Source: Candidatus Latescibacterota bacterium (GTDB lineage: Bacteria; Latescibacterota; UBA2968; GCA-2709665). Taken from it: a stretch of 64,000 nt of DNA. The translations under genes and the position numbers were made by a program. How positions within the stretch are numbered: position 1 is the stretch's first letter; each line of letters starts with the position of its first letter. The notes under the pieces were generated by a model. That model was not told the origin of the DNA, did no database searches, and saw nothing but the letters and a program-made list of their open reading frames with translations. The DNA lies in the NCBI GenBank assembly GCA_965226795.1, contig CBDDDZ010000005.1:1474016-1538015 (forward strand). The letters run 5' to 3'. Positions 12,635-54,879 of this stretch are shown here, in pieces.

Positions 12635-13725
12635 TGGGAACCCAGGAAAAACACGGCCTGTCGCCGATCGGTTCGGATGGTCGCCGGTCCTGGAGATCTC
12701 ACGTTTTCGGGTCGGCGATCGTTCGTTTAATATTCACGCTCATCTGTGTGGGTGCTTTGGGCCTGGTGCTGGTTGTCCTTGCAATGAACCGTCCGACAGG
12801 ATCAGGGCCGAGAGAAATCGTCATTCAGAATGGGATGACAGTTGTACAGATCGGAAGGTTGTTGCGCCATGAGAAGGTGATTCGAAGTCCACAGCTTCTC
12901 ATCCTGTTTTCCATATTTAACGGTACCAGCAGGCAACTCAAGGCCGGGTTTCACCGGTTCCAGGAGGGCATGAGTACCTGGGAAGTCCTCAAAGAACTGT
13001 CCGTGTCCAGAGACAATTACCGCGTTGTGACCCTCCCGGAAGGCATGACCCTGGAGCAGACGCTCCGGCGCCTGGCGGCTGAATTGGATCTGGACGAGGG
13101 GAAAATGAGGGGTCTCGCGTCTGATCCCGGATATTGTCGCCGATCGGGTGTAACCGCGGATAACCTCGAGGGTTACCTCTTTCCCGAAACCTATCGGTTT
13201 TCGCTGACGATGGACGAAGAGCAAGTCATCCGGATGCCGGTACGGCATTTCTTCAGGATTTTCGATGGGAAAATGGCGGCGCGAGCGCGTCAGATGGACA
13301 TGTCGGTACATGACGTCGTCACGCTGGCCTCCATTATCGAAGGCGAAGCGCTGTTGGATGAAGAACGGGCGACGATCTCGGCGGTCTATCACAACCGGCT
13401 CAAGCGAGGGATGTATCTCCAGGCCGATCCGACGATCCAATATGCCATTGAGGGAGGTCCCCGCAGGTTGTTTAACAAAGATTACAAGATCGACTCCCCC
13501 TACAATACCTATCGCCATCGCGGGTTACCGCCCGGTCCCGTGATGAATCCGGGGGCCGCGTCGCTGAAGGCTGCACTTTACCCGGCGGAGGTGGACTACC
13601 TCTTTTTTGTGGCCAGGGGAGACGGATCGCACGTGTTCAGCAGAACTTCCCGCGAACATAACGACGCGGAGCGGAAGACAAGGTGGGTCAGAAGACGCGG
13701 CTGGAAAACGCCCGGGACCCCTTGA
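12631..13725 (+). CDS. mltG: Endolytic murein transglycosylase MltG (YceG family)
   Basis: N-terminal TM, then ...LEGYLFPETYRF... and ...YNTYRHRGLPPGPVMNPG... Family motifs. ATGA overlap with ruvX. Confidence 0.85.
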   Translation: MMGTQEKHGLSPIGSDGRRSWRSHVFGSAIVRLIFTLICVGALGLVLVVLAMNRPTGSGPREIVIQNGMTVVQIGRLLRHEKVIRSPQLLILFSIFNGTSRQLKAGFHRFQEGMSTWEVLKELSVSRDNYRVVTLPEGMTLEQTLRRLAAELDLDEGKMRGLASDPGYCRRSGVTADNLEGYLFPETYRFSLTMDEEQVIRMPVRHFFRIFDGKMAARARQMDMSVHDVVTLASIIEGEALLDEERATISAVYHNRLKRGMYLQADPTIQYAIEGGPRRLFNKDYKIDSPYNTYRHRGLPPGPVMNPGAASLKAALYPAEVDYLFFVARGDGSHVFSRTSREHNDAERKTRWVRRRGWKTPGTP

Positions 13726-13743
13726 ATAGAGGAAATCGAGGGA

Positions 13744-15897
13744 ATGCAGCCCATTCTGGAGGGGTTGAACGAACAGCAGAAAGAGGCGGTGTGCGTCGTG
13801 GATCGCCCGGTTCTCGTCCTGGCGGGGGCCGGATCCGGCAAGACACGAGTGCTGACCCGCCGTATAGCCTACCTGATTGACGTTTGCGGCGTCCATCCTG
13901 GCGCAATTGTGGCCATGACGTTTACCAACAAGGCAGCGGGTGAGATGAATGGCCGCGTAGAGAATCTGTTAAACCGAACCACCAGGGGCTTGTGGCTGGG
14001 GACGTTCCACTCCCTGTGCGCGCGAATCTTAAGGAGGGAGCCCGGCGCGGCCGGCCTGGACTCCAATTTCTCCATATACGATTCTGACGACCAGCTCGCG
14101 TTGATGCGGAAGGTTATTCGAGATCAGGAGATTTCAGAGCGGCAGTTTCCTCCCCGGCAGGTTCGGGCGCGAATCAGTTCCGAGAAAAGCCGCATGGTCG
14201 ATCCGGTCGCATTTGCGCAACGTGCCGGTACTTTTTATGAGCAGCAGGTCGCCCGGATTTACCGGCAGTACCAATCGGCTTTACAACAGAACAACGCCGT
14301 GGATTTTGACGATCTTCTCATGCTGACGGTGCAGGTTTTCAGAGAGGACGCGACGATCCTGGAGCGGTACCAGAACCGGTTCGCGCACTGTCTGATCGAC
14401 GAGTACCAGGATACCAATCGGCCACAGTATCTTTTTGCGCGTTCGCTGGCAGGAAAGCATGGCCGCATCTTCGTGGTCGGAGACGACGACCAGAGCATCT
14501 ATGGCTGGCGCGGCGCGGATTTGGGAAACATCCTGAATTTCGAGAGGGATTTTCCCAATGCCCACGTCATCCGTCTCGAACAGAACTACCGGTCGTCACA
14601 GGTAATTCTTGGCGCGGGAAACGCGGTGATTCGCAACAACCTCGGACGTAAGGGGAAAGAGCTCTGGACAAATCGGGATCGAGGGGAACGGATTCAGCTC
14701 ACGCGGTGCGCGGACGAAGTGGACGAAGCCAAATGGATCGCTCGGAAACTGAAACTTCTCAGGGGGATGTATACCTATGGACAGATCGCCCTACTGTACC
14801 GTACGAACGCTCAGTCACGCGCGCTGGAAGACGGATTGCGTTACCAGGCGATTCCATATGTGATTGTCGGGGGGGTGCGATTTTACGAACGCATGGAAGT
14901 CAAGGATGTGCTTGCGTATCTCAGGCTGATCGTGAATCCCAGCGATTCGATCAGCCTGTACCGTATTGTCAATACCCCGCGCCGCGGCATTGGCCAGACC
15001 TCTCTCGCAAAACTGGAAGCCTTTGCGGCGGGCGAGGATATCACACCTTTTGACGCAATGTCGCATGCCATCGACATAGACGGCCTCACCGCCCGCGCGA
15101 GAGCAGCGATGGGTAGATTTCACGGGATGCTTGAAGGATTCCGGAGCCGATTGGAGGATGAACCGGCACACCTGCTGGCGGATCGCATCATACAGGAAAC
15201 CGAATATTTGCAGACACTGGAAGAGTTGACGCCCGCCGAGACCATTTCCCGCTCCGAGAATGTGCAGGAACTGCTGGTGGCTATAGAGGATTTCGTGCGC
15301 CGGTCCGACACACCTTCTCTAGCGGCATTTTTGCGTGAAGTCGCATTGGTTACCGACGTGGACCAGTGGCGCGAGGAGACCGAAGCCGCGACGTTGATGA
15401 CCTTGCATAGCGCGAAAGGACTCGAGTTTCCCGTGGTATTTATTACGGGCCTGGAAGAAGGATTGTTCCCTATCTTGAGGGAACACGACGATCCTCTGGC
15501 TGAAGAGGCGGCCGTGGAGGAGGAGCGGCGGTTGTTTTACGTGGGCGTGACAAGGGCGCAGGACCGGCTTCTCCTGACACATGCCACGCAGCGTCGGCGT
15601 TACGGCGGCGCATCGGCCAATTCCGAATCCAGATTCCTGCGAGAGATTCCAGGCGATCTGATCGTTCGGGGGCATGACTTTCAGGAAGAGATTTCCTTAC
15701 CTGACCGGATGAAAACGTCGACAGGTGACGACCCCTTCCCGATGGAAACTGGTACGTCCATTCTCCATCCCACTTGGGGGCGCGGACGAATTGTCGATCG
15801 CTCCGGAAGCGGTCCGGATACCAAACTCACGGTTCGCTTTCAGAACGGATCAACTAAAAAGGTGGTCGTTCGGTTCGCCGATCTTAGGCCGGGATGA
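13744..15897 (+). CDS. uvrD: ATP-dependent DNA helicase UvrD/PcrA (SF1)
   Basis: LNEQQKEAV, GAGSGKTRVLTRRIAYL (Walker A), DEYQDTN, LEQNYRSS, VGVTRA. 717 aa. Confidence 0.9.
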   Translation: MQPILEGLNEQQKEAVCVVDRPVLVLAGAGSGKTRVLTRRIAYLIDVCGVHPGAIVAMTFTNKAAGEMNGRVENLLNRTTRGLWLGTFHSLCARILRREPGAAGLDSNFSIYDSDDQLALMRKVIRDQEISERQFPPRQVRARISSEKSRMVDPVAFAQRAGTFYEQQVARIYRQYQSALQQNNAVDFDDLLMLTVQVFREDATILERYQNRFAHCLIDEYQDTNRPQYLFARSLAGKHGRIFVVGDDDQSIYGWRGADLGNILNFERDFPNAHVIRLEQNYRSSQVILGAGNAVIRNNLGRKGKELWTNRDRGERIQLTRCADEVDEAKWIARKLKLLRGMYTYGQIALLYRTNAQSRALEDGLRYQAIPYVIVGGVRFYERMEVKDVLAYLRLIVNPSDSISLYRIVNTPRRGIGQTSLAKLEAFAAGEDITPFDAMSHAIDIDGLTARARAAMGRFHGMLEGFRSRLEDEPAHLLADRIIQETEYLQTLEELTPAETISRSENVQELLVAIEDFVRRSDTPSLAAFLREVALVTDVDQWREETEAATLMTLHSAKGLEFPVVFITGLEEGLFPILREHDDPLAEEAAVEEERRLFYVGVTRAQDRLLLTHATQRRRYGGASANSESRFLREIPGDLIVRGHDFQEEISLPDRMKTSTGDDPFPMETGTSILHPTWGRGRIVDRSGSGPDTKLTVRFQNGSTKKVVVRFADLRPG

Positions 15898-38665: not shown

Positions 38666-38748
38666 AAAATGCTTAGTACAACAACGACGTGTTCCACCTG
38701 GAGGGGGGCAGGTTAGTTTCTGATCCACACGCATGGCGGGAGTGTGCA

Positions 38749-40410
38749 ATGGCGGGCCCTTCGGACGATGAACTGGTTCGACGCTGGAAAGACGAACCCG
38801 CACCGGTGCTGCCGTTGTTGCACGCGTTCCACGAACGGGATGGATATATCACTGATGAAGCCCTCCGGTCCATCTCGGTGGGCTTGAAAACACCGCTTGC
38901 AGATCTGTTTGGCACCGTAACGTTCTACCATCACCTTTCTCGCGAGCCCGGAGGCCTGAATAAATTCCGGGTGTGTACCGGCCCGATATGCGCGCTTCGG
39001 GGCGCACAGGAATTGTGCGATGCCCTGAACGGCGTCCCAATGGCATGCGCGGGCAGGTGTGACGAACCGGTACCGGTAATTCAGAGCCATCGCGTACTCG
39101 TAGGCACGAATGCACAGTGCCTACAGGAAGTACCAACGCCACCGCCCGCGCTAAATCCAGACAACCTGGAGGAGTGTGTCTTCCGTCACATTCGCGCGCC
39201 GAACCGCGCGACCCTCGAAGGATATCGCGCGACCCACGGGTACGAAGGGTTGGAAAGAGCCACAATTAAAATGCGGCCCGTGGAGGTTATGGAACGGGTT
39301 ACAGAGAGCGGGTTGACCGGCCGAGGCGGTGCCGGCTTCCCCACAGGTGCAAAATGGAAGGCGGTTGCAGAGGCCACCGGCGATCCGAAAACGGTTGTCT
39401 GCAACGCCGATGAGGGAGAACCGGGCTGCTTCAAGGATCGAGCCTTGATGGACTACGATCCGCACGCGGTGCTGGAGGGTATGGCCATCGCCGCGTTCGC
39501 AACGGGCGCCACACGAGGGTTCATTTATCTACGGTACGAATACCCGCAGACGCTGAGCATTCTGGAAAACGCCATTGAAGAAGCGGAGGCGGCCGGATTG
39601 CTTGGCGAAGGCATTATGGGGACGGACTTCGACTTTCGAATACATATTCGGCGCGGCGGAGGGGCGTATGTGTGCGGAGAAGAGGGGTCATTGCTGAACA
39701 GCCTGGAGGGCAGGCATCCGTTTCCCAGAAACCGACCGCCGTATCCCGTTACCCACGGATTTGAGGATCTGCCCACGGCGGTAAACAATGTTGAAACGCT
39801 GGTTGCCGTACCCCAGATCCTCCGAAAGGGTGCGGACTGGTACCGGGATCTTGGGCTGAACGGTCAACCCGGCACCAAAGTAATCAGTGTGTCCGGCGAT
39901 ATCGCAAGGCCGGGGAATTACGAGGTCCCGTTCGGCTTGCGACTGAAAACACTGCTTTACGATTGGGGCGGCGGCCCCCTCGAGGGCCGGAACATCCAGG
40001 CGGTGACGATGGCGGGGTTGTCCGGCGGCTTTGTAGCGGGCGACGCATTCGAAGCCACTCTCGACGAACCCAGCCTCCGCAGCTACGGCTCTTTTCTGGG
40101 CGCCGGGGGCATCATCGTATTTGACGATACCCGGGATATGGTTGAAGTTGCCCACGGCGCAATGGCCTTTTTTGCGGACGAGTCATGCGGCAAGTGTTTT
40201 CCGTGCCGAATCGGCACGCGCCGGTTGGCCGAGAGGCTTAACGGCGCTGTCGGACCCGGTCAGGTCGGACCATGGCGGGCGGAGGTTCATGATATCGGCC
40301 AGACAATGATGGCGACCAGCGCGTGCGGCCTGGGCACGGCGGCGCCTCTGGTGACCGAGAGCCTGATGAAGTATTTTCCGAATCAGGTCGAAAGGCACGT
40401 CGAACGGTAA
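38749..40410 (+). CDS. NAD-dependent formate dehydrogenase beta subunit: fused NuoE-like [2Fe-2S] and NuoF-like (FMN/NAD, 4Fe-4S) flavoprotein
   Basis: N-terminal NuoE-like Cys pattern (CTGPICALRG...CAGRCDEP). NuoF motifs GRGGAGFPTGAKWK and ESCGKCFPCRIGT. The start is set at the internal ATG of track ORF 38689..40410. Confidence 0.85.
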   Translation: MAGPSDDELVRRWKDEPAPVLPLLHAFHERDGYITDEALRSISVGLKTPLADLFGTVTFYHHLSREPGGLNKFRVCTGPICALRGAQELCDALNGVPMACAGRCDEPVPVIQSHRVLVGTNAQCLQEVPTPPPALNPDNLEECVFRHIRAPNRATLEGYRATHGYEGLERATIKMRPVEVMERVTESGLTGRGGAGFPTGAKWKAVAEATGDPKTVVCNADEGEPGCFKDRALMDYDPHAVLEGMAIAAFATGATRGFIYLRYEYPQTLSILENAIEEAEAAGLLGEGIMGTDFDFRIHIRRGGGAYVCGEEGSLLNSLEGRHPFPRNRPPYPVTHGFEDLPTAVNNVETLVAVPQILRKGADWYRDLGLNGQPGTKVISVSGDIARPGNYEVPFGLRLKTLLYDWGGGPLEGRNIQAVTMAGLSGGFVAGDAFEATLDEPSLRSYGSFLGAGGIIVFDDTRDMVEVAHGAMAFFADESCGKCFPCRIGTRRLAERLNGAVGPGQVGPWRAEVHDIGQTMMATSACGLGTAAPLVTESLMKYFPNQVERHVER

Positions 40411-40462
40411 AGATCCGCGCCGGTGTGCGTGAGTCCCACTGACCCTATCTGGAAGGCGGGAA

Positions 40463-43204
40463 GTGATGGTCACAGTTGAAAATGGAGCCAATACTGCCAC
40501 GATGACTCTGGACAAGGAAACGGTAACGTTTTCCGAAGGCGAAACCGTTTTTGACGTGGCGCAAAAGCACTCCAAAGATGTGCCGACGCTGTGTTACGAC
40601 TCCCGGCTGAAACCCTTTGGAAGTTGCCGCCTCTGCGTGGTGGATGTGGAGGGTGCGCGAACCCCCCTGGCTTCATGCACCACGCCCGCGACACCGGGGA
40701 TGGTCGTGCGTACGGAGACGGATGCGATACTGAGGTATCGAAAGGTGTTGCTGGAGATGGTGGCCTCCGAAAACCCCGTGATCGACGTAGACCCCCTTAG
40801 TGGTTACGCCTCCCAGGAACTGGCAACTCTTGTAGATCGATACGGTGCGCGGACCGGCCGGTTCAAGGGAGCGCAGTCCGGACGCAGCAAGGTGGAGGAC
40901 GACAATCCATTTCTTCTGCGTGATTATGACAAATGCATCTCTTGCTACCGTTGCGTCAGGGTATGTGCCGAGCAGGAGGGAGATGATGCAATCAGCGTGA
41001 TGAACCGCGGCTTCGAGACACAGATTGTAACCGAATTCGATGGTCTGCTGAAAGAGTCGTCATGTACGTTTTGCGGGCAGTGTATTCAGACGTGCCCCAC
41101 GGGTGCGCTTGCGGACAAGAAAGCGTTGCGGGCGTCCAGCGATCCGGGCGAAATTAAAAAAACGCGTACTATCTGCCCGTATTGCGGGGTGGGGTGTTCG
41201 GTGGACGTAATGATCAAAGGGGAGAAGATTGTGGGCATCCAGCCCGCGATGGACGGTCCCGCAAACCTGGGTGCGCTTTGTGTCAAGGGACAGTTTGCTT
41301 TCGACTTCGTACACCACCGTGATCGGCTGAAGATGCCGCTGGTGCGCGGAGGAGACGGCAGACTGCACGAAACGAGCTGGGAGGAGGCACTGGATCGCGC
41401 CGCGCAGGGTTTCAAGGATGCGCGGGCGGCGCATGGGAAGTACAGCGCGTACGGGGTGGCCTCCGGCCGTGCGCCTACCGAGGCTGCCTACCTGATGGGT
41501 AAATTCATCCGCGCCGGCTTCGGCACCAACTATATAGACAACTGCAGCCGTGCGTGACACGCCCCAACGGTTGCCGGTCTGGCAGCCACGGTCGGACGGG
41601 GCGCGATGTCGAATCCACTGGTCGATATGGAAAAGCCCGATGTGTTCTTCTGCATCGGGACGAATATGACCGAGTGCCATCCAGTGGCGGCCACGCGGCT
41701 AAAGAAAGCGATACGCAGGGGGGCAAAACTGATTGTCGCGGATCCCCGGCGCATCCCTCTGGCCGAGATGGCGGATCTGTATCTTCCGTTACGGGTGGGA
41801 TCCGACGTTGCGCTCTTGCTTGCGATGGCCCACGTCATCGCAAGGGAAGGGTTGATCGACCGGGACTTTATCGAAAACCGGACGGTGAAGGCTGAGGACT
41901 TCCTGGAGCATGTGAAGGAGTATCCCCCGGAATGGGCCGAGAGAATCACGGGCGTGCCAGCGAAGGACATTGAACTGGCCGCCATCTGGTACGGCATGGC
42001 CGATAGGGGTGCAATTTACTATACGCTGGGAATTACCGAGCATATCTGTGGCGTTGACAATGTTCAGAGCCTCTGTAATCTGGCCCTGATGACGGGAAAC
42101 CTGGGGCGCGACGGTACGGGCATCAATCCGATGCGCGGCCAGAACAATATCCAGGGCGCAGGGGATTCGGGAGCTGTTCCGGATAAATTCCCAGGGTTCC
42201 AGCCGTGCGACGACCAGGAAAACGCGATAAAATTCTCACGCCTTTATGGCCGGCGTATCGACGCGGAAAAGGGTGTTACCAAGGTGGCGGCATTGAACCT
42301 GTGCGGCGACCGGATCCGCGCAATGATGATAGACGGCGAGAACACTGTTGTATCCGATCCGGACCGGGCGCATTGCACGCGGGCATTGCAGAGCCTGGAC
42401 CACCTGGTGGTGATCGATATTTTCTTGACCGAAACGGCTGAACTTGCCGACGTCGTGCTGCCGGCCACGGCTTGGGGGGAGACGGACGGGACGTGCACGA
42501 ATACCGAGCGGCGTGTCCAGCGCCTGCGCGCGGCGGTCCCGCCCCCTGGCGAGGCCCGTCCCGATTGGTGGATTGTAAGTGAGCTTGCGAAACGCATGGG
42601 AACGCCGGGATTCGGGTATGGTTCTGCGAAAGACGTGTTCAACGAGTTGTGCAGCGTGTCGCCCATATACGCAGGGCTGAATTGGGATCGAATCGAACAC
42701 GGGCAGTATCATTGGCCGGTCCCGTACGGAGGCCATCCCGGCACGCCGATGTTGCACGAAGGCGAATTTTCAAACGGCCGGGGTATTTTCACGAAGATTC
42801 GCTATCGCGATCCGGCGGAGACGGTCAGCGACGCCTTTCCGGTTTGGTTGACTACGGGTCGCAGATTGCAGGCCTACCATACTCGAACTCAGACAGGGCG
42901 GGCGACGGGGATGGACTGGCTTCTTTCCGAAGAGACGCTGGAAGTACATCCGGCGGACGTGTCGGCCTGGGGTCTGACCGACGGCGGCTTGTGCCGGATG
43001 TCGAGCGAACGAGGTTCCATTCGGATCAAGGTGAAGGCGACCCGGCAATCACCCCGTGGTACCGTGTTTGCCAGTTTTGGTTTCAATGACGTTCCGGTGA
43101 ATATCCTGACCGGTTCGGGCTACGATCCCATTACGGAGACAGCCGAATTAAAGGTTTGTCCGGTTCGTATTGAACCACTTGTACCAGAACGATATATACC
43201 CTAA
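40463..43204 (+). CDS. fdhA: Formate dehydrogenase alpha subunit (molybdopterin, NuoG-like N-terminal Fe-S domains) with in-frame UGA selenocysteine at 41555..41557
   Basis: Track ORFs 40463..41557 and 41606..43204 are in the same frame. Read-through gives ...NYIDNCSRA-U-HAPTVAGLAATVGRG..., matching the conserved C-x-R-[VA]-U-H-[GA]-P-[ST]-V-x-G-L selenocysteine site of FdhF/FdhA. A bSECIS-like hairpin follows. Confidence 0.9.
41569..41587 (+). promoter_or_regulatory. Bacterial SECIS-like hairpin (GGUUGCC-GGUCU-GGCAGCC) 12 nt downstream of the UGA
   Basis: 7-bp stem (one G-U pair) with the apical loop GGUCU. Sequence and spacing resemble the E. coli fdhF SECIS (UGCA-GGUC-UGCA). Confidence 0.6.
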
Positions 43205-43213
43205 GGATTAAAG

Positions 43214-44044
43214 TTGAATTCAGGCATTACACAGCGAGTCGTGTCGAGGGTGAATAACGGCTGTCCGGCGCGTTCGATTCAGGACGATATCGCGATAGAA
43301 GAGCCCCTGGAAATCCGCGTGGCGGGGGATCCGGTGGCCGTCACCATGCGCTCTCCCGGAAATGACTCCCGGCTCGCCGTGGGTTTTCTGTTTTCGGAAG
43401 GGATTATCGCGTCTATCGAGGACATTGGGCGGGTATATCACTGCGGAAGGCCCGGGACAGAGGCATACGGTAATGCGATTGACGTGCTGCCCGCGCCCGG
43501 CCACAGTCTGGATATCGAGCGGGTTAGCGCCAGCCGGCGCGGCACGCTGACGACGTCTGCGTGTGGGGTATGTGGTCGACTGGGCATAGCTGACCTGGTG
43601 GAGCGTTGTTCTGTTTTGCCGCCTGGACCGAAGATATCGGCGAAATTGCTATCTGATACGATTGAAAATATGACACGGATTCAGCCCACATTCACCCACA
43701 CCGGCGGTGTGCACGCCGCCGCCGCGTTCGGCCTGGACGGCTGCGCGCTTGTATGCAGCGAAGATGTGGGCCGACACAATGCCGTGGACAAAACCGTCGG
43801 CGCACTGCTTTTCGACAGATTGGTGGGAGCGTCTCGGGGAGCCGTCGTACTGGCCGTCAGCGGCAGATCGAGCTTTGAAATCGTCCAGAAAGCGGCAGTC
43901 GCACGAATTCCTATTGTTGCAAGCGTCTCGGCCGCCAGTTCGCTGGCGGTCGATCTTGCAACCGATGTGGGTATTACTCTTGCGGGATTTGTTCGCCGGA
44001 AGGGCTTCAATCTGTACGCGCACCCTGAACGGATTGTGCCATAA
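43214..44044 (+). CDS. fdhD: Formate dehydrogenase accessory sulfurtransferase FdhD
   Basis: DDIAIEEPLEIRV..TTSACGVCG (catalytic Cys loop)..EDVGRHNAVDK. Confidence 0.9.
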   Translation: MNSGITQRVVSRVNNGCPARSIQDDIAIEEPLEIRVAGDPVAVTMRSPGNDSRLAVGFLFSEGIIASIEDIGRVYHCGRPGTEAYGNAIDVLPAPGHSLDIERVSASRRGTLTTSACGVCGRLGIADLVERCSVLPPGPKISAKLLSDTIENMTRIQPTFTHTGGVHAAAAFGLDGCALVCSEDVGRHNAVDKTVGALLFDRLVGASRGAVVLAVSGRSSFEIVQKAAVARIPIVASVSAASSLAVDLATDVGITLAGFVRRKGFNLYAHPERIVP

Positions 44045-44054
44045 GGAGTGGACG

Positions 44055-44282
44055 ATGCCTATTTTTGAGTTTATCTGCGGCAGTTGCCGTCATCCCTTCG
44101 AGATGTTCATTCAGGGCTCCCAGGAACCGCGCTGCCCATCCTGTGGCAGCAGCGAACTTGAAAAACAACTTTCGGTTTTTGCCGTAAGTGGAGGTAGCGG
44201 CCAAACGGTGGATCCCGAACCCCTGGGGCCCTGCGGAACCTGCGGAGAACCCAGAGGTCCTGGCGCCTGTTCACTGAATTAG
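44055..44282 (+). CDS. FmdB-family zinc-ribbon protein (putative regulatory protein)
   Basis: MPIFEFICGSCRHPFE...RCPSCGS...CGTCGE. CxxC pairs. AAGGAG SD 8 nt upstream of the ATG. Confidence 0.7.
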   Translation: MPIFEFICGSCRHPFEMFIQGSQEPRCPSCGSSELEKQLSVFAVSGGSGQTVDPEPLGPCGTCGEPRGPGACSLN

Positions 44283-44288
44283 GCATTG

Positions 44289-44321
44289 GATCCCGGTTGA
44301 AAACGCCGGGATCTTTTTTTT
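44289..44321 (+). terminator. Strong rho-independent terminator (GATCCCGG-ttgaaaacg-CCGGGATC plus T8)
   Basis: Perfect 8-bp GC-rich stem followed by TTTTTTTT, directly after fmdB. Confidence 0.7.
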
Positions 44322-44401
44322 GTACATGAATTGGGAATCCGAGCGAATTTTCCATTAATCCTGTCGGTTCCGCAGGTTGTTTCCTACGTGAAGAATGTGA
44401 G

Positions 44402-44419
44402 ATTTGCATTTGTGCAAAT
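44402..44419. promoter_or_regulatory. Perfect palindrome ATTTGCA-N4-TGCAAAT (candidate operator) upstream of the Hcy-MTase fusion gene
   Basis: Read directly from the sequence, about 150 nt upstream of the ATG at 44571. Confidence 0.3.
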
Positions 44420-44570
44420 TTCCATTCCGACCTATCTTTGGCGGAGTTGGCTCCATAGCGCGTCGACCCCCGCGCCGGGCCACATGCGCGGATTCAATTC
44501 GACGTTTTTGCCGAACCGGAACGGCCTTCGTCCGGCCTGCTGGCTGCCGGCCCGTTGGGGAGTATTCGAC

Positions 44571-46334
44571 ATGGGCGCCGTGTTCACAAAAGCCTACCGC
44601 CGTATTCAACAATCGATTGCCGAGGATCGTTGTGTGATTCTGGATGGCGGCGTTGCCACGGAACTGGACCGGATGGGACTTCGGGATCACGCCATCAGCG
44701 ATCACACCCTCTGGGGCACCTGGGCATTGTACCATGAACCCTATTCGGTGCTGGATGTACACCGACGGTTTGTGGAGGTCGGCTGCGACGTAATTTCAAC
44801 CAATACCTGGGGGATCCTGGAAGGTTCGGAGATAGGCGGGCGAGGGCTGGCGGCAGGTGCCGGAATATCGCATTGGATGGATGTGGCGCAACGCGGTATC
44901 ACGTTGGCGCGCCGGGCAAATCAACAGGTGGGCAGGGAGGACGAATGCGCGGTGGCCTTCAGCGTAAATGGAGACATCGATACCTCTCAGCGGTTGGAAC
45001 GATTACAGCTGCTTTCAAGGGTATTTGTAGACGATCCTCCCGATCTCATCTTGATGGAAACGATGTCAATTGTCCGCGAGGATCTCACGCTTCCTGCGGT
45101 CGAACTGATGATTCAGACAGGTATTCCGGTGTGGCTGAGCTTCCGGCGCTGCAGGCAGGGTCTGTGCGGGGTGCACGGGCAGCACTGGGGGGGTCCCGAA
45201 GGAGATTATTTTGGCAGATTGGCTGCCCGTTTCGAACGAATGGAAATTGGGGCCCTTTTGATCAACTGTCTGCCGGTGGAGCACGTGTCCGGGATGATAT
45301 CGTGGCTGAGGGATTTTACCGATCTTCCACTGGGCGTGTACCCGAACCTGGGGCGTTACCTGGACCCGGGTTGGAAATTCGACGAAACCGTGGGGCCGCG
45401 ATGCTTTGCCGCGTTGGCCGAGGCCTGGCGCGAAGAGGGGGCGCAGATCGTCGGCGGGTGCTGTGGTGTCACGCCCGATCACATTGCTCAAGCCAGAGAG
45501 GCGCTGGCGTGTACCCGGGCGGGCCGTAAGCGAGTCCAGCCTCGTATATTAGCGGGGGGCGGAACCAATTGTGAAGATGGGGTCGTTCCGTGTCCATGGG
45601 TAGACGAGAACATGCGGTCGCTCTTTCCGCTGCCATTTCCTGAAATTGTGTGCGATCCGGGGGTGTTCGCTCCAACGCAGGGGAGCTTTTTGATCTGGAA
45701 GCATCTCTTTCGAACGGGCGCCGGCCAAGGCAAACGCTGCCTGGATGTCGGTTGCGGCACCGGAATCCTGTCCGTGCAACTCGCGTTGAACGGCGCTGCG
45801 CATGTCGTGGCAATCGATATCCAGAAAGAAGCCGTCGGCAATACGATGACGAACGCTTTTCGAAACGGCGTGGCAGATCGCATTTACGGACGGGTTGCGG
45901 ATCTCTATACCTTTGTACCGGAAGACAGGTATGACCTGGTCATCGGCAGTCTTTATCAGATGCCGGTGGATCCGATCCGGCAGACAACCGGACACCGTAC
46001 CGCCGATTTCTGGGGGAGGAATCTTCTCGATCACCTGATTGGGCTGCTGCCGCAGATGCTGGCCGACCACGGTGTCGCCTATCTGATGCAGATTTCGGCT
46101 TTGAGTCAGATTCAAACGTCCGATCTGATTTCGGACTCGGGACTGGACGCGACGGTAATAGACTTCAGCTTTTTTCATTTCAGCCCGGTATTTGACGAAA
46201 ATATCGATCAGATCCGGCGGGTCTCCGAGTTGTCCGATGCCTTTCACCTGAGTTTTGGTCAGGACAACGTGATGGTGATGTACCTGCTGGAACTAAAGTT
46301 CGGCGCAGGCAATCCTTTAGATAGTCCGGTTTGA
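44571..46334 (+). CDS. Fusion protein: homocysteine S-methyltransferase (Pfam S-methyl_trans) domain plus class I SAM-dependent methyltransferase domain
   Basis: N-domain: RCVILDGGVATELDRMGL ... VGGCCGVTPDHI (zinc/Hcy-binding GGCCG). C-domain: KRCLDVGCGTGILSV (motif I), VVAIDI (motif II), LVIGSLYQMP. The start is at an internal ATG with a GGGGAG SD; the 80-aa upstream extension in the track ORF is non-protein-like. Confidence 0.7.
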   Translation: MGAVFTKAYRRIQQSIAEDRCVILDGGVATELDRMGLRDHAISDHTLWGTWALYHEPYSVLDVHRRFVEVGCDVISTNTWGILEGSEIGGRGLAAGAGISHWMDVAQRGITLARRANQQVGREDECAVAFSVNGDIDTSQRLERLQLLSRVFVDDPPDLILMETMSIVREDLTLPAVELMIQTGIPVWLSFRRCRQGLCGVHGQHWGGPEGDYFGRLAARFERMEIGALLINCLPVEHVSGMISWLRDFTDLPLGVYPNLGRYLDPGWKFDETVGPRCFAALAEAWREEGAQIVGGCCGVTPDHIAQAREALACTRAGRKRVQPRILAGGGTNCEDGVVPCPWVDENMRSLFPLPFPEIVCDPGVFAPTQGSFLIWKHLFRTGAGQGKRCLDVGCGTGILSVQLALNGAAHVVAIDIQKEAVGNTMTNAFRNGVADRIYGRVADLYTFVPEDRYDLVIGSLYQMPVDPIRQTTGHRTADFWGRNLLDHLIGLLPQMLADHGVAYLMQISALSQIQTSDLISDSGLDATVIDFSFFHFSPVFDENIDQIRRVSELSDAFHLSFGQDNVMVMYLLELKFGAGNPLDSPV

Positions 46335-48374: not shown

Positions 48375-50632
48375 TTGTCCAATCCTCGTTTCGAAAAATT
48401 GTCGCCCGTACCCGGCCTGGGGCTGGAGGGCTATACCGACGAAGTAACCCTGCCGGCCGGAGCAGAGATCGGTTTCAAATTGGGTGGTCCTCCCGGCACG
48501 GCTGATGTGAACCTCGCGCGGCTGATTCACGGAGACCCAAATCCCGACGGACCGGGTTACAAGGAAGAACCTGTCTCATGGGGGCAGCCGGATCGGATTG
48601 ACGTGCAAGATCAGGTTACGGATTATGGTTCATTCATTGAGATTCCGCACTCCGATACCCTGAATCCGGCGGGTGCGTTTACCGTGGCGCTCTGGTTTCT
48701 GCCAACTCTAGGTGGCGGCGGATGGCGCGCCCTGACGGTGAAGTGGGCGTGTCAAAACTTGAGCTACGGGATTTTTTTCGCCGGCGAGCGGTTTCTGACG
48801 GCTGCGGTGTCTCACGACGGCAAGACGGCACACTGGGCAACCGCCAGAGAGGCCATCCATGTCGGCAACTGGCAGTTCGTGGCGTTCTCGTACCAACCTG
48901 AATCAGGTAACATCTGTCTTTATCAGCAAATTGGGGATACCGCCGGGGTGGTCGAAACCCGATCGTCCTCCGACGCGCTGAGTTTTGCATCGAAAAACAT
49001 CGAGAAGGGTCCGGTGTTCCCGGGCACCGCGCCGCTGCTGTTCGGCGCCTGCCCGGAACCCGACCGCGAAGGCATCCATTGGGCCCATTTTACGGGAAAA
49101 ATCGCGCACCCCGTGCTTTTTGAAACTGCACTCGATCGCGAAGATATCCAGGCACTCGCGGGCGGACGGAATCCTTCAACACTGGGCCCACTGCTGGGAT
49201 GCTGGCATCTTGGCCGCGAGGTGACGGGCGCCCGTGTCGTTGATCTGTCCGACAACGGGAATCACGGGCTTGCCTTAAACGCGCCGGGGCGTGCGGTTAC
49301 TGGACCGTTCTGGACGGGGGAATGCCGTCCCGGCTCTATACGGATCAACCTGACGATTACAATGCGGTCTACCTGCACGAAGACGATCTGGAAGATGCAG
49401 AATGGGCAACGTCTTTCGCGGTGGAAGTACCTCCCGACACCAGGCCCGGCATCTATACACTACGCGCCGAGACAGATGCTGAAACACTCTTCGTGCCGTT
49501 TATCGTGACATCCAGGACGCCGCGGTCGGAATTGGCATGCCAGATCCCCACGCTCACGTGGCAGGCGTACCGAAGCAACCGTGCCGCGTACAGCAATACC
49601 GAAGACGGTGTGCTGGATCGTACGATATGCACTTACGACGTGCATAGCGACGGGTCGACGGTTTACTATTACTCGCGCCTTCAGCCAACGCGCGGATGGA
49701 ATCCCACTGCGGGATTTCAGAACTGGGGCGCGCACAATATTACCGCGAATCTCTACCTGATCGACTGGCTGGACGCGCTGGAGTTCAAATACGATGTCTT
49801 TGCGGACGAGGATCTGCATTGCGGGGGCACCGAGCTTCTTTCTAAATATCGATGTGTGATTCTGGGAAGCCACCCCGAATACCACACCGAAAACATGGTC
49901 GACAGCCTGGCGGCGTACGTGCGAAACGGGGGCCGTCTCGTCTATTTGAGCGGTAATGGCCTGTACTGGGTGATGTCCATCGACCCCCGGCGGCCCCATC
50001 TGCTTGAACTGCGCCGGGGAGGAGAGGGCGACTACGGACCCACGTACGAGCCGGTGCCCGGGGAATCGCAACACAGCACGACACTGGAACTCGGGGGATT
50101 ATGGGCGAGGCGGGGACGCCCGCCCCGACGGACGGTCGGCGTTGAACATGCGTCCAACGCCTGGATGGAAGCGGAAGATAAAAGGGGCTTTCGGCGACTT
50201 CCGTCAAGCAGGGACGCCAGGTACGCGTGGGTTTTCGACGGTGTCGGAAATGACGAAGTTATCGGAGACTTCGGCCTGAACCTGGGCAGCGCTGCAGGCT
50301 TTGAAATGGACGCCGTGCAGGATTGGGCGTGGGACCGGCTCACGCCCGAACCCGTCGTACTCGCCCGGGCGGCCTGTCCCGGATTTATCCCCGCCCGACG
50401 TACGCACGTACCGCCTACGGCGGATCTGGCGATTATGGATTATCCCGGAGGCGGCGCGGTTTTTTCGGCAGGCTCCGTAACCTGGACGGGCAGCCTCTCA
50501 CACAACGGCTATACCAATAACGTCTCCTCCATCACCCGCAACGTAATTCGCCGATTTCTGGATACGCCGGCTGGCGGGACGGTACTTGGAGACGCCGGCC
50601 TACCAACGCTGGTGAATACTTCTTCCAAATAA
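48375..50632 (+). CDS. N,N-dimethylformamidase beta (large) subunit-family protein: N-terminal ConA-like/LamG domain plus C-terminal DMFase-beta-like domain. Split by a 1-nt indel in a G-run at 49316..49320
   Basis: Track ORFs 48375..49508 and 49322..50632 overlap in different frames. G5 to G6 yields a continuous ...GPFWTGGMPSRLYTDQPDDYNAVYLHED... The C-domain motif ...VILGSHPEYHTENMVDSLAAYVRNGGRLVYLSGNGLYWV... is as I recall it for this family. The family assignment is from memory, not a search. Confidence 0.6.
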
Positions 50633-50636
50633 ACAA

Positions 50637-51731
50637 TTGCGGCACACCGGAGATCCCATTCAGATGGACGCCGGAAAGTCGGTATATCCCCGAAGTCTGT
50701 TGCAGCGCCTCGACGAAGACGGCGTGATATGCGCTGAGGGGTATTTGTTCGAACTCGAACGCCGAGGGTATCTGCAGGCGGGCCCTTTCGTGCCGGAAGT
50801 CGTGCTTGAGCACCCGGAAGTCGTGGCCGGGTTGCATCGGGAATTCTGGCGCGCGGGTTCGGACGTGATTGAGGCGTTTACGTACTACGCCCATCGAGAA
50901 AAGCTACGCATCATCGGCAAGGAACATCTTCTGGAACCCCTGCAGAAGAGTGCGCTGGGGATAGCGAAATCGGTCGCCGAATCGGTCGAAGGAGAACGCC
51001 CTCTGGTTGCAGGCAACATTTGCAATACCAACATCTGGGATCCGGAGGATCGGGCAACGGACGCGCAGGTTACGGCGATGTTCGACGAACAGGTGGCGTG
51101 GGCGGCTGAGGCGGGAGTCGATTTCATGATCGCGGAGACGTTCTCCTTTTCCGGGGAGGCCGCACTGGCACTGGCATCTATCAAACGGGCTGGAATAACG
51201 GCTGTGGTGACCTTTGCGCACCATCGGGAGGAAGGATTGAGGGACGGAGTCCTGCTGGATGAGGCCGCAAAACGTCTGGAGCAGGCCGGCGCGGATGTAG
51301 TCGGGGTAAATTGCACCAGAGGACCACAAACGATGCTGCCCGATGTGGAACGTATCCGGCGTGCCATATCCTGTCACGTGGCGGCATTGCCGGTACCGTA
51401 TCGCACGACGGAGGATCAACCGACGTTTCAATCACTTCGGGAGGCGGGCAATGAACCGTCGCCTGAGGGACGTTCGTTTCCGACAGCGTTGGATCCCTTT
51501 ACCTGCCACAGGTATGAAATGGCCGCGTTTGCACGTCGGGCGTTCGATATGGGTGTCCGGTACCTCGGCGTCTGCTGCGGGTCCGGGCCTCATCACGTCA
51601 GATCAATTGCGGAAGCGTTGGGACGAATCCCGCCCGCCCGCCGTTACTCTCCGGACATGTCCAGGCACTACGCGCTGGGCAGCGATTCCAGCCTCAAGGG
51701 CCACAATCGGGAATTTGTCGAAAAGCTGTGA
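50637..51731 (+). CDS. Betaine-homocysteine S-methyltransferase-like (homocysteine S-methyltransferase family) protein
   Basis: GYLFELERRGYLQAGPFVPEVVLEHPEVVAGLHREFWRAGSDVIEAFTYYA ... GVNCT ... YLGVCCGSGPHHVRSIAEALGR. Closely parallels the BHMT N-terminal and zinc-site blocks. Confidence 0.8.
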   Translation: MRHTGDPIQMDAGKSVYPRSLLQRLDEDGVICAEGYLFELERRGYLQAGPFVPEVVLEHPEVVAGLHREFWRAGSDVIEAFTYYAHREKLRIIGKEHLLEPLQKSALGIAKSVAESVEGERPLVAGNICNTNIWDPEDRATDAQVTAMFDEQVAWAAEAGVDFMIAETFSFSGEAALALASIKRAGITAVVTFAHHREEGLRDGVLLDEAAKRLEQAGADVVGVNCTRGPQTMLPDVERIRRAISCHVAALPVPYRTTEDQPTFQSLREAGNEPSPEGRSFPTALDPFTCHRYEMAAFARRAFDMGVRYLGVCCGSGPHHVRSIAEALGRIPPARRYSPDMSRHYALGSDSSLKGHNREFVEKL

Positions 51732-53523: not shown

Positions 53524-54879
53524 GTGAATGTCAGGAAACACATGAGTTTACCGGAACACGTGGAATATCTGATCATCGGCGCAGGTGTGCACGGTCTGAG
53601 CACGGGTTACCACCTGGCGCGTGAGTTGAAAAGGCGGCGTCGGGGAGGCGGGTCTGACGTGCTGGTTGTGGACAAGACGGGGGTGGCAGCGGGCGCTTCC
53701 GGCATTGCCTGCGGCGTGATCCGTAACAACTATTACCAACCGGCCATGCGCGAACTGATGGCACACAGCGTCGATATATGGGAGACCGACCCGGAGGCAT
53801 TCAGCTATCACCCCGTCGGCTATATGCAGATCAGCCCCGAGTCCATGCACGACGACGTTGCAAGCATCGCTCAAGAGCAGGGTGAGATCGGTTACGAATC
53901 CGAATTTATCGAAGGAGAAGCAGACTGCATGAAATATATGCGGGGTCTGTTTCACGACTGGCAGGCGAAGGGAATCACATCCGTTCTTCACGAAAAAAGA
54001 GGGGGATATGCCAACAACCGTACGTCCATGATGGGCCTGGCGGCCAAGGCCAGGAGCGAAGGCGTCGGGATTCTGGAAGGCGTTTCGGTGACCGGATTTC
54101 GGTACGATGACGGGGCAATATCGGCGGTGGAAACGGGTCGCGGCGTGATCCGGGTAGACGAGGTTGTTATTGCCGTGGGGCCGTGGGCGAAGTTGCTCTG
54201 GGATATGTTGAACCTGCCCGCGTCGATGAGCATCAAGGGTTCGGATGGCGCCATGCATCACGACATTCCCATGTGGAGCTACTGGTGTTTGCAGGAAGGG
54301 ACGCTGGGCGTGGATCCCAACTATCTCAAAACCAACGACGGCAGGATGCCCCCCGTAATTCATCTGGACACGGACGCGCCACTGTATTCGGACGTCGACG
54401 GTTCGCTGATTACGGATCGCCTGTGGGGTATATACTACAAACCCGATTTCCACTTTGGGGGCGTGCAGGGAGGGGCAATGCCCTACCGGGTGGAAAGACC
54501 GCCGGACGAAGTTGCGGTGGACCCCTATGGTCCGGAATCTCTCGATTTCATCGTTGGTGACCAATTCGCGCACCAGTGGTGTTCCGCGCTGGCATTCTGT
54601 CATAAGCGGTTTGAAGGAAAGTCTCCACTCTTCAAGAAAGAGCCATCCGGTGGCATCGGCGCGTTTACACCCGATCGTTTCCCGGTGTTCGACCGGTTTC
54701 ACAAGAATTGTTACCTCATTGCAGATTCCAACCACGGGTACAAGATGATTGGCGTGGGGAAGCTGGTGGCGGAGGAACTCCTGGGCGAACGCTCCCGTGT
54801 CCTGGAGCCGTTCCGTTTTTCACGTTTTGTTGAGGGCATGCTGCACCCGGTATCCAGCAGCCCGTTTCCATGGAGCTGA
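53524..54879 (+). CDS. FAD-dependent oxidoreductase (DAO family; sarcosine/N-methyl-amino-acid oxidase beta-like)
   Basis: YLIIGAGVHGLSTGYHLARE (GxGxxG dinucleotide fold). 451 aa. Confidence 0.75.
   Translation: MNVRKHMSLPEHVEYLIIGAGVHGLSTGYHLARELKRRRRGGGSDVLVVDKTGVAAGASGIACGVIRNNYYQPAMRELMAHSVDIWETDPEAFSYHPVGYMQISPESMHDDVASIAQEQGEIGYESEFIEGEADCMKYMRGLFHDWQAKGITSVLHEKRGGYANNRTSMMGLAAKARSEGVGILEGVSVTGFRYDDGAISAVETGRGVIRVDEVVIAVGPWAKLLWDMLNLPASMSIKGSDGAMHHDIPMWSYWCLQEGTLGVDPNYLKTNDGRMPPVIHLDTDAPLYSDVDGSLITDRLWGIYYKPDFHFGGVQGGAMPYRVERPPDEVAVDPYGPESLDFIVGDQFAHQWCSALAFCHKRFEGKSPLFKKEPSGGIGAFTPDRFPVFDRFHKNCYLIADSNHGYKMIGVGKLVAEELLGERSRVLEPFRFSRFVEGMLHPVSSSPFPWS

Follow-up and report, generated by a model that had tools for sequence, protein, structure and literature searches.

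Mammals dispose of labile methyl groups through a route composed of BHMT, MAT, GNMT, and sarcosine dehydrogenase, and HemK2-type enzymes usually depend on Trm112, a zinc-knuckle protein. Two described proteins combine an enzyme domain for homocysteine (Hcy) methylation with a second module: YitJ (NF006396; about 610 amino acids [aa] in total), in which an N-terminal PF02574 domain is joined to a second methyl-metabolism enzyme, and MetH, in which an Hcy module and an S-adenosylmethionine (SAM)-binding module are carried on flexible linkers. Here, we describe a gene in a 64,000-nucleotide (nt) stretch of Candidatus Latescibacterota bacterium DNA (contig CBDDDZ010000005.1, positions 1,474,016 to 1,538,015 of the forward strand; assembly GCA_965226795.1), referred to throughout as the window, that codes for a homocysteine S-methyltransferase (HMT) domain fused to a class I SAM-dependent methyltransferase domain. 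It resembles YitJ in its N-terminal domain and MetH in its Hcy barrel and modular design, but the YitJ partner domain is MTHFR, which supplies the methyl donor, whereas the partner here is a SAM-consuming methyltransferase, and MetH's SAM module differs in fold and acts in reductive reactivation.

The fusion is real, strongly conserved, and widespread, and the pairing is new to the literature searched, although its sequences are abundant in databases. Each half is familiar; what is unfamiliar is the fixed pairing, the remodeled acceptor site, the family-specific invariant loops, and the link to methyl-oxidation genes. Full-text literature searches found no description of the fusion: the "MetE-fusion" of a 2024 PNAS paper has a different architecture (PKS/PP-binding, core MetE, and CzcO), the subject of a 2025 FEBS J paper is a stand-alone Bmt, and Price et al. 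(2021) treat core MetE families with MesX, not the fusion protein.

Organization of the fusion gene

A preliminary description of this DNA, made from the sequence alone, had proposed a 587-aa open reading frame (ORF) at 44571..46334 on the plus strand, and this ORF is present exactly, with an ATG start. The two strings it quoted are also found in the translation, GGCCGVTPDHI at aa 295 to 305 and LDVGCGTGILS at aa 391 to 401. The gene and its parts are as follows.

44571..46334, plus strand: fusion gene, 587 aa plus stop, coding for an HMT domain, a linker, and a SAM-methyltransferase domain (ORF, Pfam, homologues)
44571..45521, plus strand: N-terminal homocysteine S-methyltransferase (PF02574) TIM-barrel domain, aa 1 to 317 (Pfam, alignment, conservation, Foldseek)
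45267..45269, plus strand: codon of Cys233 (NCLP), predicted first zinc ligand (invariant in 89 sequences; MetH/MmuM alignment)
45459..45464, plus strand: codons of Cys297 and Cys298 (GGCCG), predicted second and third zinc ligands (invariant; MetH/MmuM alignment)
45522..45596, plus strand: variable interdomain linker, aa ∼318 to 342 (alignment and pLDDT, the per-residue model confidence)
45597..46331, plus strand: C-terminal class I SAM-dependent methyltransferase domain of HemK2/N6AMT1 ancestry, aa 343 to 587 (profiles, Foldseek, alignment)
45741..45764, plus strand: SAM-binding motif I, LDVGCGTG, aa 391 to 398 (conservation)
45948..45965, plus strand: motif IV, SLYQMP, aa 460 to 465, where HemK2/N6AMT1 relatives carry NPPY (alignment)

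The ATG at 44571 is the start of the fusion and is preceded by a GGGGAG Shine-Dalgarno sequence at 44557..44562. A longer ORF that opens with TTG at 44331 is ruled out as the gene, because an alignment of upstream regions shows that relatives keep the ATG and GGGGAG while sequence farther 5′ diverges, leaving the extension unconserved.

The Pfam domain scan agrees with the proposal that one polypeptide joins an HMT domain to a SAM-methyltransferase domain of class I, the latter complete. PF02574 (S-methyl_trans) matches aa 22 to 312 over its whole length (profile positions 1 to 283 of 283) with 132.9 bits versus a cutoff of 22, and several class I methyltransferase families score above their cutoffs over aa ∼359 to 460 (PrmA, 44.4 bits; MTS, 41.3 bits; Methyltransf_25, 38.4 bits), as do Methyltransf_31 and Methyltransf_11. 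These are the only Pfam families detected, and the pterin-binding and B12-binding modules of MetH were not found. NCBIfam models carry the second domain to aa ∼360 to 537 ("putative methyltransferase" PRK14968, 66 bits; HemK2/MTQ2, 43.5 bits), but neither domain reaches the cutoff of a curated equivalog in the NCBIfam scan.

Distribution and integrity of the architecture

An identical protein (P0001, 100%) is present on a 3.1-Mb contig, with further records on a 35-kb Logan contig and a 9.9-kb contig of an NCBI metagenome-assembled genome (MAG). The best 120 of 2,650 significant database proteins are all full-length two-domain proteins of 570 to 619 aa with 59 to 100% identity, and a scan of one genome per species found at least 422 stretches that encode a relative of the fusion. 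The best 80 of these are all MAGs and span at least 10 phyla; carriers among them include Latescibacterota, Gemmatimonadota, Poribacteria, Chloroflexota, Acidobacteriota, Planctomycetota, and Tectomicrobia, as well as Actinomycetota (Gaiellales, Solirubrobacterales, and Thermoleophilia), Lentisphaeria, Kiritimatiellia, Verrucomicrobiota, and Proteobacteria. Hundreds of uncultured species carry the fusion, in soil and groundwater, in the deep sea, and in sponges. Identity among species-level relatives is 56 to 91% (82 to 91% between the window protein and its Latescibacterota relatives), and the 56 to 68% identity retained across phyla implies strong constraint on the fusion.

The architecture had been called unusual, but it is not rare: at least 422 species-level genomes, from many phyla, encode it. 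The converse possibility, that it is common and already annotated, is true in its first part, but the annotation consists of generic names, either "homocysteine S-methyltransferase family protein" or a double COG label of the Joint Genome Institute.

The preliminary description also raised the possibility that two neighboring genes had been joined by an indel error at the domain junction. Only one relative, locus L060 (Latescibacterota, 91% identity, the closest to the window), has the gene called in two pieces (5892..7640; 229 and 353 aa). Its break is a frameshift after GQHWGGP (about aa 209) that lies inside the HMT domain and not at the junction, across which the second piece runs uninterrupted; the cause may be an indel error from long reads, or the gene may be a pseudogene. 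The junction is continuous in the identical proteins of three independent assemblies and in two-domain homologues from more than 10 phyla, and together with the uniformly full-length best database matches this makes an assembly or annotation artifact so improbable as to be negligible.

The N-terminal domain retains the residues of a zinc-dependent homocysteine methylase

Conservation was measured on alignments of 24 and 89 homologues, in which the two domains are equally conserved (mean column identity, 65 to 68%). In the N-terminal domain, D25-G26-G27, E163, C233, C297, and C298 are invariant among the 89 homologues, and a HMMER alignment to Thermotoga maritima MetH and Escherichia coli MmuM places these residues at the zinc ligands and the homocysteine-binding positions. 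Cys233 aligns with the cysteine of "INC" in both proteins, C297-C298 with GGCCG of MetH and GGCC of MmuM, D25-G26-G27 with LDGA, and E163 with (F/C)ET; we take the DGG motif and the conserved glutamate to be the homocysteine-binding features of the BHMT and MetH structures. The family also has an invariant insert of its own at R192 to R216 (RRCRxGxCGVxGQHWGGPEGDxFGR) that contains two extra invariant cysteines and is ∼11 residues longer than the corresponding MetH loop.

Foldseek matches of this domain are to the MetH Hcy domain, BHMT, and MmuM, with the MetH Hcy barrel the best (E value of 1e-16). Its profile scores all lie below the equivalog cutoffs (MmuM NF007020, 112.7 versus 215 bits; BHMT NF005718, 51.9 versus 338 bits; MetH TIGR02082, 47.6 versus 1,011 bits; YitJ NF006396, 79.5 versus 453 bits), which places the fusion, as judged by these profiles, outside the MmuM, BHMT, MetH, and YitJ equivalogs. 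Its full-length PF02574 match, three cysteines, DGG motif, and glutamate make it a member of the PF02574 superfamily. From its residues, we argue that the N-terminal domain is likely to be an active Zn-dependent homocysteine methylase.

The C-terminal domain is a HemK2-like methyltransferase with a different acceptor motif

In the C-terminal domain, G394, C395, G396, G398, D416, and D444 are invariant among the 89 homologues, and conservation is at least 90% at L391 and D392; D416 and D444 are the usual acidic residues after strands 2 and 3 of the class I fold. Two further segments, S460-L-Y-Q463-M-P465-V-D-P and H475-R-P-x-D-F-W-G-R483, are invariant or nearly so, with Q463 and P465 strictly invariant. 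Residues ∼318 to 342 are the only poorly conserved stretch of the protein and vary in length as well as sequence, and for this reason we assign them as the linker. The AlphaFold2 (AF2) model has a mean pLDDT of 79.7 and is confident within the domains, with pLDDT below 50 at residues 323 to 341; because its overall template-modeling confidence (pTM) is 0.55 and two invariant loops (194 to 210 and 467 to 480) are of low confidence, we conclude nothing about the domain interface.

The predicted alternating strand-helix fold of the C-terminal domain agrees with N6AMT1, and the best Foldseek matches are N6AMT1, KMT9, and HemK2-TRMT112 (target-normalized TM scores of 0.71 to 0.76). The complex of MmtN with S-adenosylhomocysteine (SAH) and methionine (7vvx) is a weaker and distant match (TM score of 0.56; E value of 9e-9). 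HMMER searches with this domain alone retrieve the fusion family first, including the divergent P0134, P0138, and P0154 at 40 to 46% identity, and next stand-alone proteins of ∼230 aa at 25 to 30% identity. Five of the stand-alone proteins (P0227, P0241, P0245, P0251, and P0264) score 92 to 119 bits against TIGR00537 (HemK2/MTQ2), above the cutoff of 87, whereas the fusion scores 43.5 bits. At the SLYQ site, six stand-alone relatives have NPPY (four of them), NPPS, or SLPQ, and the divergent fusions have SLEQ, SVER, or SPFQ; when aligned with human N6AMT1, NPPY faces SLYQ, and a GR..D loop is common to both. Neither the 25 best NCBIfam matches listed nor the PDB matches include a GNMT, GSMT, or SDMT family.

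By these alignments and profiles, the C-terminal domain descends from HemK2/N6AMT1-type N-methyltransferases, keeps their scaffold, and very probably still binds SAM, and the change at motif IV indicates that its acceptor differs from that of the HemK2 type. Filing it as an N5-glutamine methyltransferase would be wrong, because it scores below the TIGR00537 cutoff and lacks the NPPY motif. We argue, again from residues, that it is likely to be an active SAM-dependent methyltransferase.

Naturally split versions of the protein were sought among these relatives, with uninformative results: the 1.5-kb contig that carries the lone C-terminal domain P0127 has no HMT gene on the strand of P0127, and the stand-alone P0245, which has an intermediate motif, is on a 2.4-kb contig with no HMT neighbor. 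The divergent P0154 (C-terminal domain with 40% identity and SPFQ; loci L090 to L092) lies among multicopper oxidase, cupredoxin, copper-type P-type ATPase, and HMA genes, with translation factor genes nearby as well, a context quite unlike that of other fusion loci.

Gene neighborhoods across relatives

ORFs of 80 related loci and of the window (81 loci) were clustered and searched with phmmer. No partner is universal across these loci, and a Pfam census of 71 same-strand neighbors from diverse loci shows no dominant family (IclR, 4; hydantoinase B, 2; others, 2 or 1). In the window group, a second, stand-alone S-methyl_trans gene (HMT2) lies about 4 kb downstream of the fusion; elsewhere it is 63 nt away in Poribacteria L017, 36 nt away in Gaiellales L080, and adjacent in L049, L070, and L073; it is also found in L050, L063, L066, L014, L016, and L019. 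Core-MetE-like Meth_synt_2 genes are similarly placed, 15 nt away in Proteobacteria L024 and L025, 35 to 36 nt in Thermoleophilia L057 and L064, 252 nt in L075, and 0.8 to 1 kb in Acidobacteriota and Sulfomarinibacteraceae, and are also present in L053, L082, and the divergent P0134 locus. Latescibacterota locus L084 (16954..21761), like L083, has three to four extra S-methyl_trans paralogs within 10 kb, a local HMT expansion.

Of the 81 loci, 35 have a DAO-family ORF no more than 10 kb from the fusion, a raw count that includes many close relatives, and the gap is as small as 34 nt in L021, 56 nt in L026, and 413 nt in L053. For the DAO enzymes of L053 (8359-9525) and L026 (11841-13007), the nearest families are N-methyltryptophan oxidase, SoxB, and monomeric sarcosine oxidase, none of which reaches its cutoff. 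SoxA-like genes (Fer2_4, SO_alpha_A3, and GCV_T) and GCV_T genes are near the fusion in Chloroflexota, Terriglobia, Solirubrobacterales, Gaiellales, and Proteobacteria. About nine Chloroflexota loci are organized as GATase_6, GXGXG, Glu_synthase, fusion, an AAA_21 insert in most, SoxA-like, GCV_T, DAO, and type III glutamine synthetase (TIGR03105, 598 bits versus a cutoff of 470), a gene set that we take to be the N-methylglutamate (NMG) pathway of methylamine oxidation (mgsABC, mgd, and gmaS). These complete NMG-like clusters lie at ∼6.8 to 19 kb of loci L040, L046, L047, L051, L052, L054 to L056, and L058; the MAGs are probably sponge associated, and in most of these loci an AAA_21 ATPase gene and a 179-aa ORF without a Pfam match directly follow the fusion. 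Gaiellales loci have a PuuD-like gamma-glutamyl hydrolase gene near the fusion.

Two Actinomycetota loci place the fusion among methyl cycle genes. The same-strand array of L053 (Thermoleophilia) is MetK, PfkB kinase, AhcY, DAO, fusion, and Meth_synt_2, in which the genes leading to the fusion are separated by about 25 to 440 nt and Meth_synt_2 follows after about 770 nt; the PfkB kinase is adenosine kinase-like and receives no NCBIfam assignment. In L082, the order is LuxR/GAF regulator, fusion, MetK, Meth_synt_2, a gene of unassigned function, and MFS. The L053 Meth_synt_2 ORF (12491..14074) codes for 528 aa, of which the catalytic domain matches only aa ∼297 to 471, and it has close homologues in L057, L064, and L075; its 5′ part is either an uncharacterized N-terminal region or an overextended start.

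Two other products are encoded just downstream of the fusion in some loci: a protein of 582 aa that matches nothing in Pfam or NCBIfam, directly downstream in L014, L016, and L083, and a DUF6785/DUF6784 protein of ∼680 to 740 aa in L083 (13635..15674; Latescibacterota) and L087 (12683..14911; Planctomycetota), which could be a transporter for the substrate of the fusion.

The window neighborhood

In the window, the same-strand array is fusion, short-chain dehydrogenase/reductase (SDR), SDR, N,N-dimethylformamidase (DMFase) large-subunit-like gene, HMT2, acetolactate synthase-like thiamine pyrophosphate (TPP) enzyme, DAO, and RidA-like gene, and the terminator scan of the window found no terminator after the fusion. 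Formate dehydrogenase genes lie upstream.

50637..51731, plus strand: stand-alone second S-methyl_trans gene, HMT2, 364-aa ORF (Pfam, 139 bits)
53524..54879, plus strand: DAO-family FAD oxidoreductase, weakly SoxB-like (profile scans)
38689..44044, plus strand: NAD-type formate dehydrogenase genes, NuoF-like, FdhA with in-frame TGA, and FdhD (context; kept in closest relatives)

The nearest NCBIfam types for HMT2 are the YitJ N-terminal domain and BHMT, below cutoff. The DMFase-like gene (Laminin_G_3 and DMFA2_C) consists of overlapping ORFs in different frames (48375..49508 and 49322..50632, plus strand) and is a single 753-aa ORF in relatives (L006, 13562-15820); because an independent Logan assembly (L001) shows the same two-gene call, the break is genuine, as a frameshift or pseudogene, unless the two assemblies share a consensus error. 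The FdhA-like gene (40463..43204, plus strand) is composed of two ORFs in the same frame, parted by a TGA at 41555..41557 (NYIDNCSRA-TGA-HAPTVAGL) that is presumably at the selenocysteine position of FdhF-type enzymes. A 7-bp hairpin begins 14 nt 3′ of this TGA, with a fold that is not statistically distinctive (z of −1.3), and the gene likely codes for a selenocysteine-containing formate dehydrogenase rather than being split. A small zinc-ribbon gene (44055..44282, plus strand; 75 aa, CxxC...CxxC), which only the closest relatives share, separates fdhD from the fusion and has a conserved terminator.

The upstream region

Three features lie between the zinc-ribbon gene and the fusion.

44288..44324, plus strand: intrinsic-terminator-like hairpin and T-run ending the upstream zinc-ribbon gene (terminator scan, conservation)
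44402..44419, no strand: perfect palindrome ATTTGCA-TTTG-TGCAAAT, candidate operator overlapping a weak promoter (sequence, shuffles, conservation)
44432..44444, plus strand: conserved box CTATCTTTGGCGG, with a possible −10 region TATCTT, just 3′ of the palindrome (same five relatives as the palindrome core)

Because the terminator ends the upstream gene, the fusion starts its own transcription unit. The palindrome, which the preliminary description had pointed out, is exact, is unique in the window, does not occur in 100 shuffles, and lies ∼150 nt 5′ of the ATG. Its core, TTGCAtttgTGCA, is kept in five of seven aligned Latescibacterota and Gemmatimonadota relatives, and the variant in L003, AATTGCAtttgTGCAATT, has changes in both arms that retain the palindrome. 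The 5-N4-5 layout beside the TATCTT box suggests a candidate operator overlapping a promoter; a sigma-70 consensus scan calls no promoter in the leader, the TATCTT box included. Since close relatives keep the palindrome, dedicated regulation, as was proposed, is plausible in this lineage, but the fusion family as a whole does not share it. A riboswitch in the 250-nt leader was considered and rejected, in that no Rfam family reaches its gathering score, the matches obtained being to the upstream terminator or weak and at chance level, and the fold is not significantly stable (z of −1.9).

A possible role in methyl harvesting and oxidation

From the architecture, conservation, catalytic motifs, and gene neighborhoods, we infer both the substrates of the fusion and the coupling between its domains. 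Our preferred reading, which we hold tentatively, is that the fusion may be a bifunctional enzyme of the activated methyl cycle, in which the HMT domain loads homocysteine and the C-terminal domain unloads the SAM methyl onto an amine or amino acid that is demethylated by neighboring oxidases. To judge from its intact catalytic residues, the Zn-dependent HMT domain would move a methyl group from an onium donor to homocysteine, giving methionine, the donor most likely being a sulfonium or betaine such as S-methylmethionine (SMM), dimethylsulfoniopropionate (DMSP), or glycine betaine. MetK would then turn methionine into SAM outside the fusion protein, and the C-terminal domain, with its rebuilt acceptor pocket, would methylate a nitrogen, either in a small amine or in an amino acid, of the kind found in glycine, glutamate, or glutamine. 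The neighboring genes suggest that the N-methyl product would be demethylated oxidatively by DAO enzymes of the sarcosine oxidase family, SoxA-like enzymes, or NMG dehydrogenase-type enzymes, regenerating the acceptor and yielding formaldehyde or methylene-tetrahydrofolate (THF), with formate dehydrogenase encoded upstream in the window; SAH would be recycled via AhcY and adenosine kinase. The fusion would thereby keep the reaction that enters the cycle and the one that leaves it at a 1:1 ratio, and the harvested methyl groups would be dissimilated or fed to the one-carbon (C1) pool while Hcy, methionine, and SAM stay catalytic. Free glutamine (giving gamma-glutamylmethylamide) or glutamate is an attractive acceptor, because of the descent from N5-glutamine methyltransferases and the place of the fusion in NMG clusters, although this is only a lead, the NPPY motif being lost.

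The preliminary description had offered two functional ideas, and they fare differently. A methyl-cycling role fits the context of L053, where MetK, AhcY, and a PfkB kinase accompany the fusion, and of L082, where MetK is adjacent. Direct channeling from Hcy through methionine to SAM-dependent methylation within the protein is impossible, because an ATP-dependent SAM synthetase has to act between the two reactions and is not part of the fusion.

Several observations weigh against the methyl harvesting and oxidation proposal. Donor and acceptor alike are guesses, the steps of the two domains are not consecutive, so that fusing them brings no channeling benefit, and each methyl group taken through the route consumes about 3 ATP equivalents. 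A nitrogen acceptor is not assured because NPPY, the binder of a planar amino group among N-methyltransferases of this lineage, is lost, and by NCBIfam scores the N-terminal domain is nearer to MmuM-type SMM/SAM-dependent enzymes than to BHMT, which also suits an SMM cycle (see below). The AF2 interdomain geometry is unreliable at a pTM of 0.55, with the two most conserved loops at low confidence. The fusion is a lone gene among unrelated neighbors in many loci (Tectomicrobia, Planctomycetota, several Acidobacteriota, the Planctomycetes-Verrucomicrobia-Chlamydiae [PVC] group, and the divergent P0154), DAO genes are common in such genomes, and MetK and AhcY have to be rejected as general neighbors, occurring in only 2 of the 81 loci, both from Actinomycetota.

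Three other functions have to be weighed against methyl harvesting and oxidation. One is an SMM cycle on a single polypeptide, in which the C-terminal domain would convert SAM and methionine to SMM and SAH and the HMT domain would convert SMM and Hcy to two methionines, serving to control the SAM level or methyl index as has been proposed for the plant MMT/HMT cycle. Here channeling would be real, because the HMT domain would take as its substrate what the C-terminal domain makes, and the MmuM-type SMM/SAM-dependent HMT family (NF007020, 112.7 bits) is the best scoring of the curated families for the N-terminal domain; the appearance of the MmtN-SAH-methionine complex 7vvx among the Foldseek matches (E value of 9e-9), the loss of NPPY, which suits a nonnitrogen acceptor, and the frequent stand-alone context, which suits a self-contained function, point the same way. 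We nevertheless consider it unlikely, in that the net reaction (SAM and Hcy to SAH and methionine) is futile and burns ATP, an operon with MetK, AhcY, and adenosine kinase makes little sense without an exit, the C-terminal domain is structurally much nearer to N6AMT1 (TM scores of 0.71 to 0.76) than to MmtN (0.56), and the recurrent DAO, Sox-like, and NMG neighbors are left unexplained. The NMG and Sox-like contexts would also be unexplained by a synthesis of SMM/DMSP-type osmolytes through two successive methylations of one sulfur compound, from thiol to thioether by the HMT domain and to sulfonium by the C-terminal domain, after which the DAO, RidA, TPP decarboxylase-like, and SDR genes of the window would convert SMM to DMSP by deamination, decarboxylation, and oxidation. 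The window array, from the fusion and two SDR genes to the TPP enzyme, DAO, and RidA-like genes, does resemble a path from amino acid to 2-oxo acid, aldehyde, and acid, many carriers are from marine or sponge-associated lineages, and the MmtN-like structural match could be read in its favor; however, the array is confined to the closest Latescibacterota and Gemmatimonadota relatives, soil Actinomycetota and groundwater lineages carry the fusion too, and an HMT domain joined to an SMM synthase would use up the SMM made, all of which leaves this function improbable.

It is also conceivable, but quite unlikely in our estimation, that the C-terminal domain is not an independent enzyme and is instead a SAM-sensing regulatory pseudomethyltransferase with feedback control over the HMT domain, or a SAM holder whose former acceptor cleft docks on the HMT barrel, forming a composite SAM:homocysteine methyltransferase of MetH-like modular design that might, for example, dispose of excess or racemized SAM. 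The retention of SAM-binding motifs while the ancestral acceptor motif NPPY is gone, the long flexible linker, and the often stand-alone context are compatible with this, and the invariant family-specific loops (aa 192 to 216 and 467 to 483) are the segments that AF2 cannot place, as expected of mobile interface or lid elements. Yet the replaced pocket (S460, Q463, P465, H475, R476, D479, W481, G482, and R483) is conserved like a catalytic site, the GR..D loop is common to active HemK2 enzymes, a composite SAM:Hcy transferase would again be futile, the oxidase neighbors are unaccounted for, and the domain interface is not evaluable at a pTM of 0.55. Of these readings, methyl harvesting and oxidation through the methyl cycle explains best the partners of the fusion, namely the Hcy methylases, MetK/AhcY/kinase, the sarcosine oxidase- and NMG-type oxidases, and formate dehydrogenase.

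A broader proposal, about which we are more doubtful, is that the fusion could be the signature enzyme of an undescribed aerobic route that oxidizes sulfonium and betaine methyl groups (of SMM, DMSP, glycine betaine, and related osmolytes) through the methionine/SAM cycle. Its acceptors might be, for example, glycine (giving sarcosine), glutamate (giving N-methylglutamate), or free glutamine (giving gamma-glutamylmethylamide), with subsequent oxidation of the Sox or NMG dehydrogenase type. If this is so, a large group of uncultured aerobes would harvest and burn the methyl groups of abundant osmolytes without cobalamin- or THF-dependent demethylases, corrinoid- and DmdA-independent demethylation would occur in soil Actinomycetota, Acidobacteriota, Chloroflexota, and sponge-associated Latescibacterota and Poribacteria, and the fusion would serve as a metagenome marker gene for methyl harvesting and oxidation. 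Even in an SMM cycle or a SAM-sensing role, it would be a HemK2-type N-methyltransferase without NPPY that was recruited to small-molecule sulfur and methyl metabolism. In each case, it is a fixed combination as conserved across phyla as core methyl cycle enzymes, with neither a curated family nor a name.

Comparison with known methyl-transfer systems

With MmuM, plant HMT, and yeast Mht1-Sam4, the fusion shares the fold, a full-length family match, the Cys...Cys-Cys zinc site, DGG, and the glutamate, and the MmuM type is its best-scoring curated family, albeit at about half the cutoff (112.7 versus 215 bits). However, MmuM and MetH lack the ∼11-residue Cys/His/Trp-rich insert (RRCRxGxCGVxGQHWGGPEGD), and MmuM-type enzymes lack the C-terminal SAM-methyltransferase domain. 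That domain has motif X (V-[FY]-x-P), motif I, and the GR..D loop after motif IV in common with HemK2, MTQ2, and N6AMT1, but those enzymes have NPPY and work with Trm112, whereas the fusion has SLYQ and is covalently attached to an HMT domain, and its substrate is probably neither a release factor nor a histone. The plant SMM cycle (MMT and HMT) and bacterial MmtN offer the same pair of chemistries, a SAM-dependent methylation and an HMT reaction, but MMT and MmtN are separate proteins and distant structural matches to the C-terminal domain (TM score of 0.56). The logic of the proposed function is that of the mammalian BHMT-GNMT-sarcosine dehydrogenase route, in which a methyl group passes from an onium donor to Hcy, from SAM to an amino-acid nitrogen, and through a flavoenzyme of the sarcosine oxidase family to a C1 unit. 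The mammalian enzymes are separate proteins, and in the matches listed the C-terminal domain shows no homology to GNMT other than the class I fold; the analogy is a functional one only. The gene neighborhoods of the fusion supply every element of this logic.

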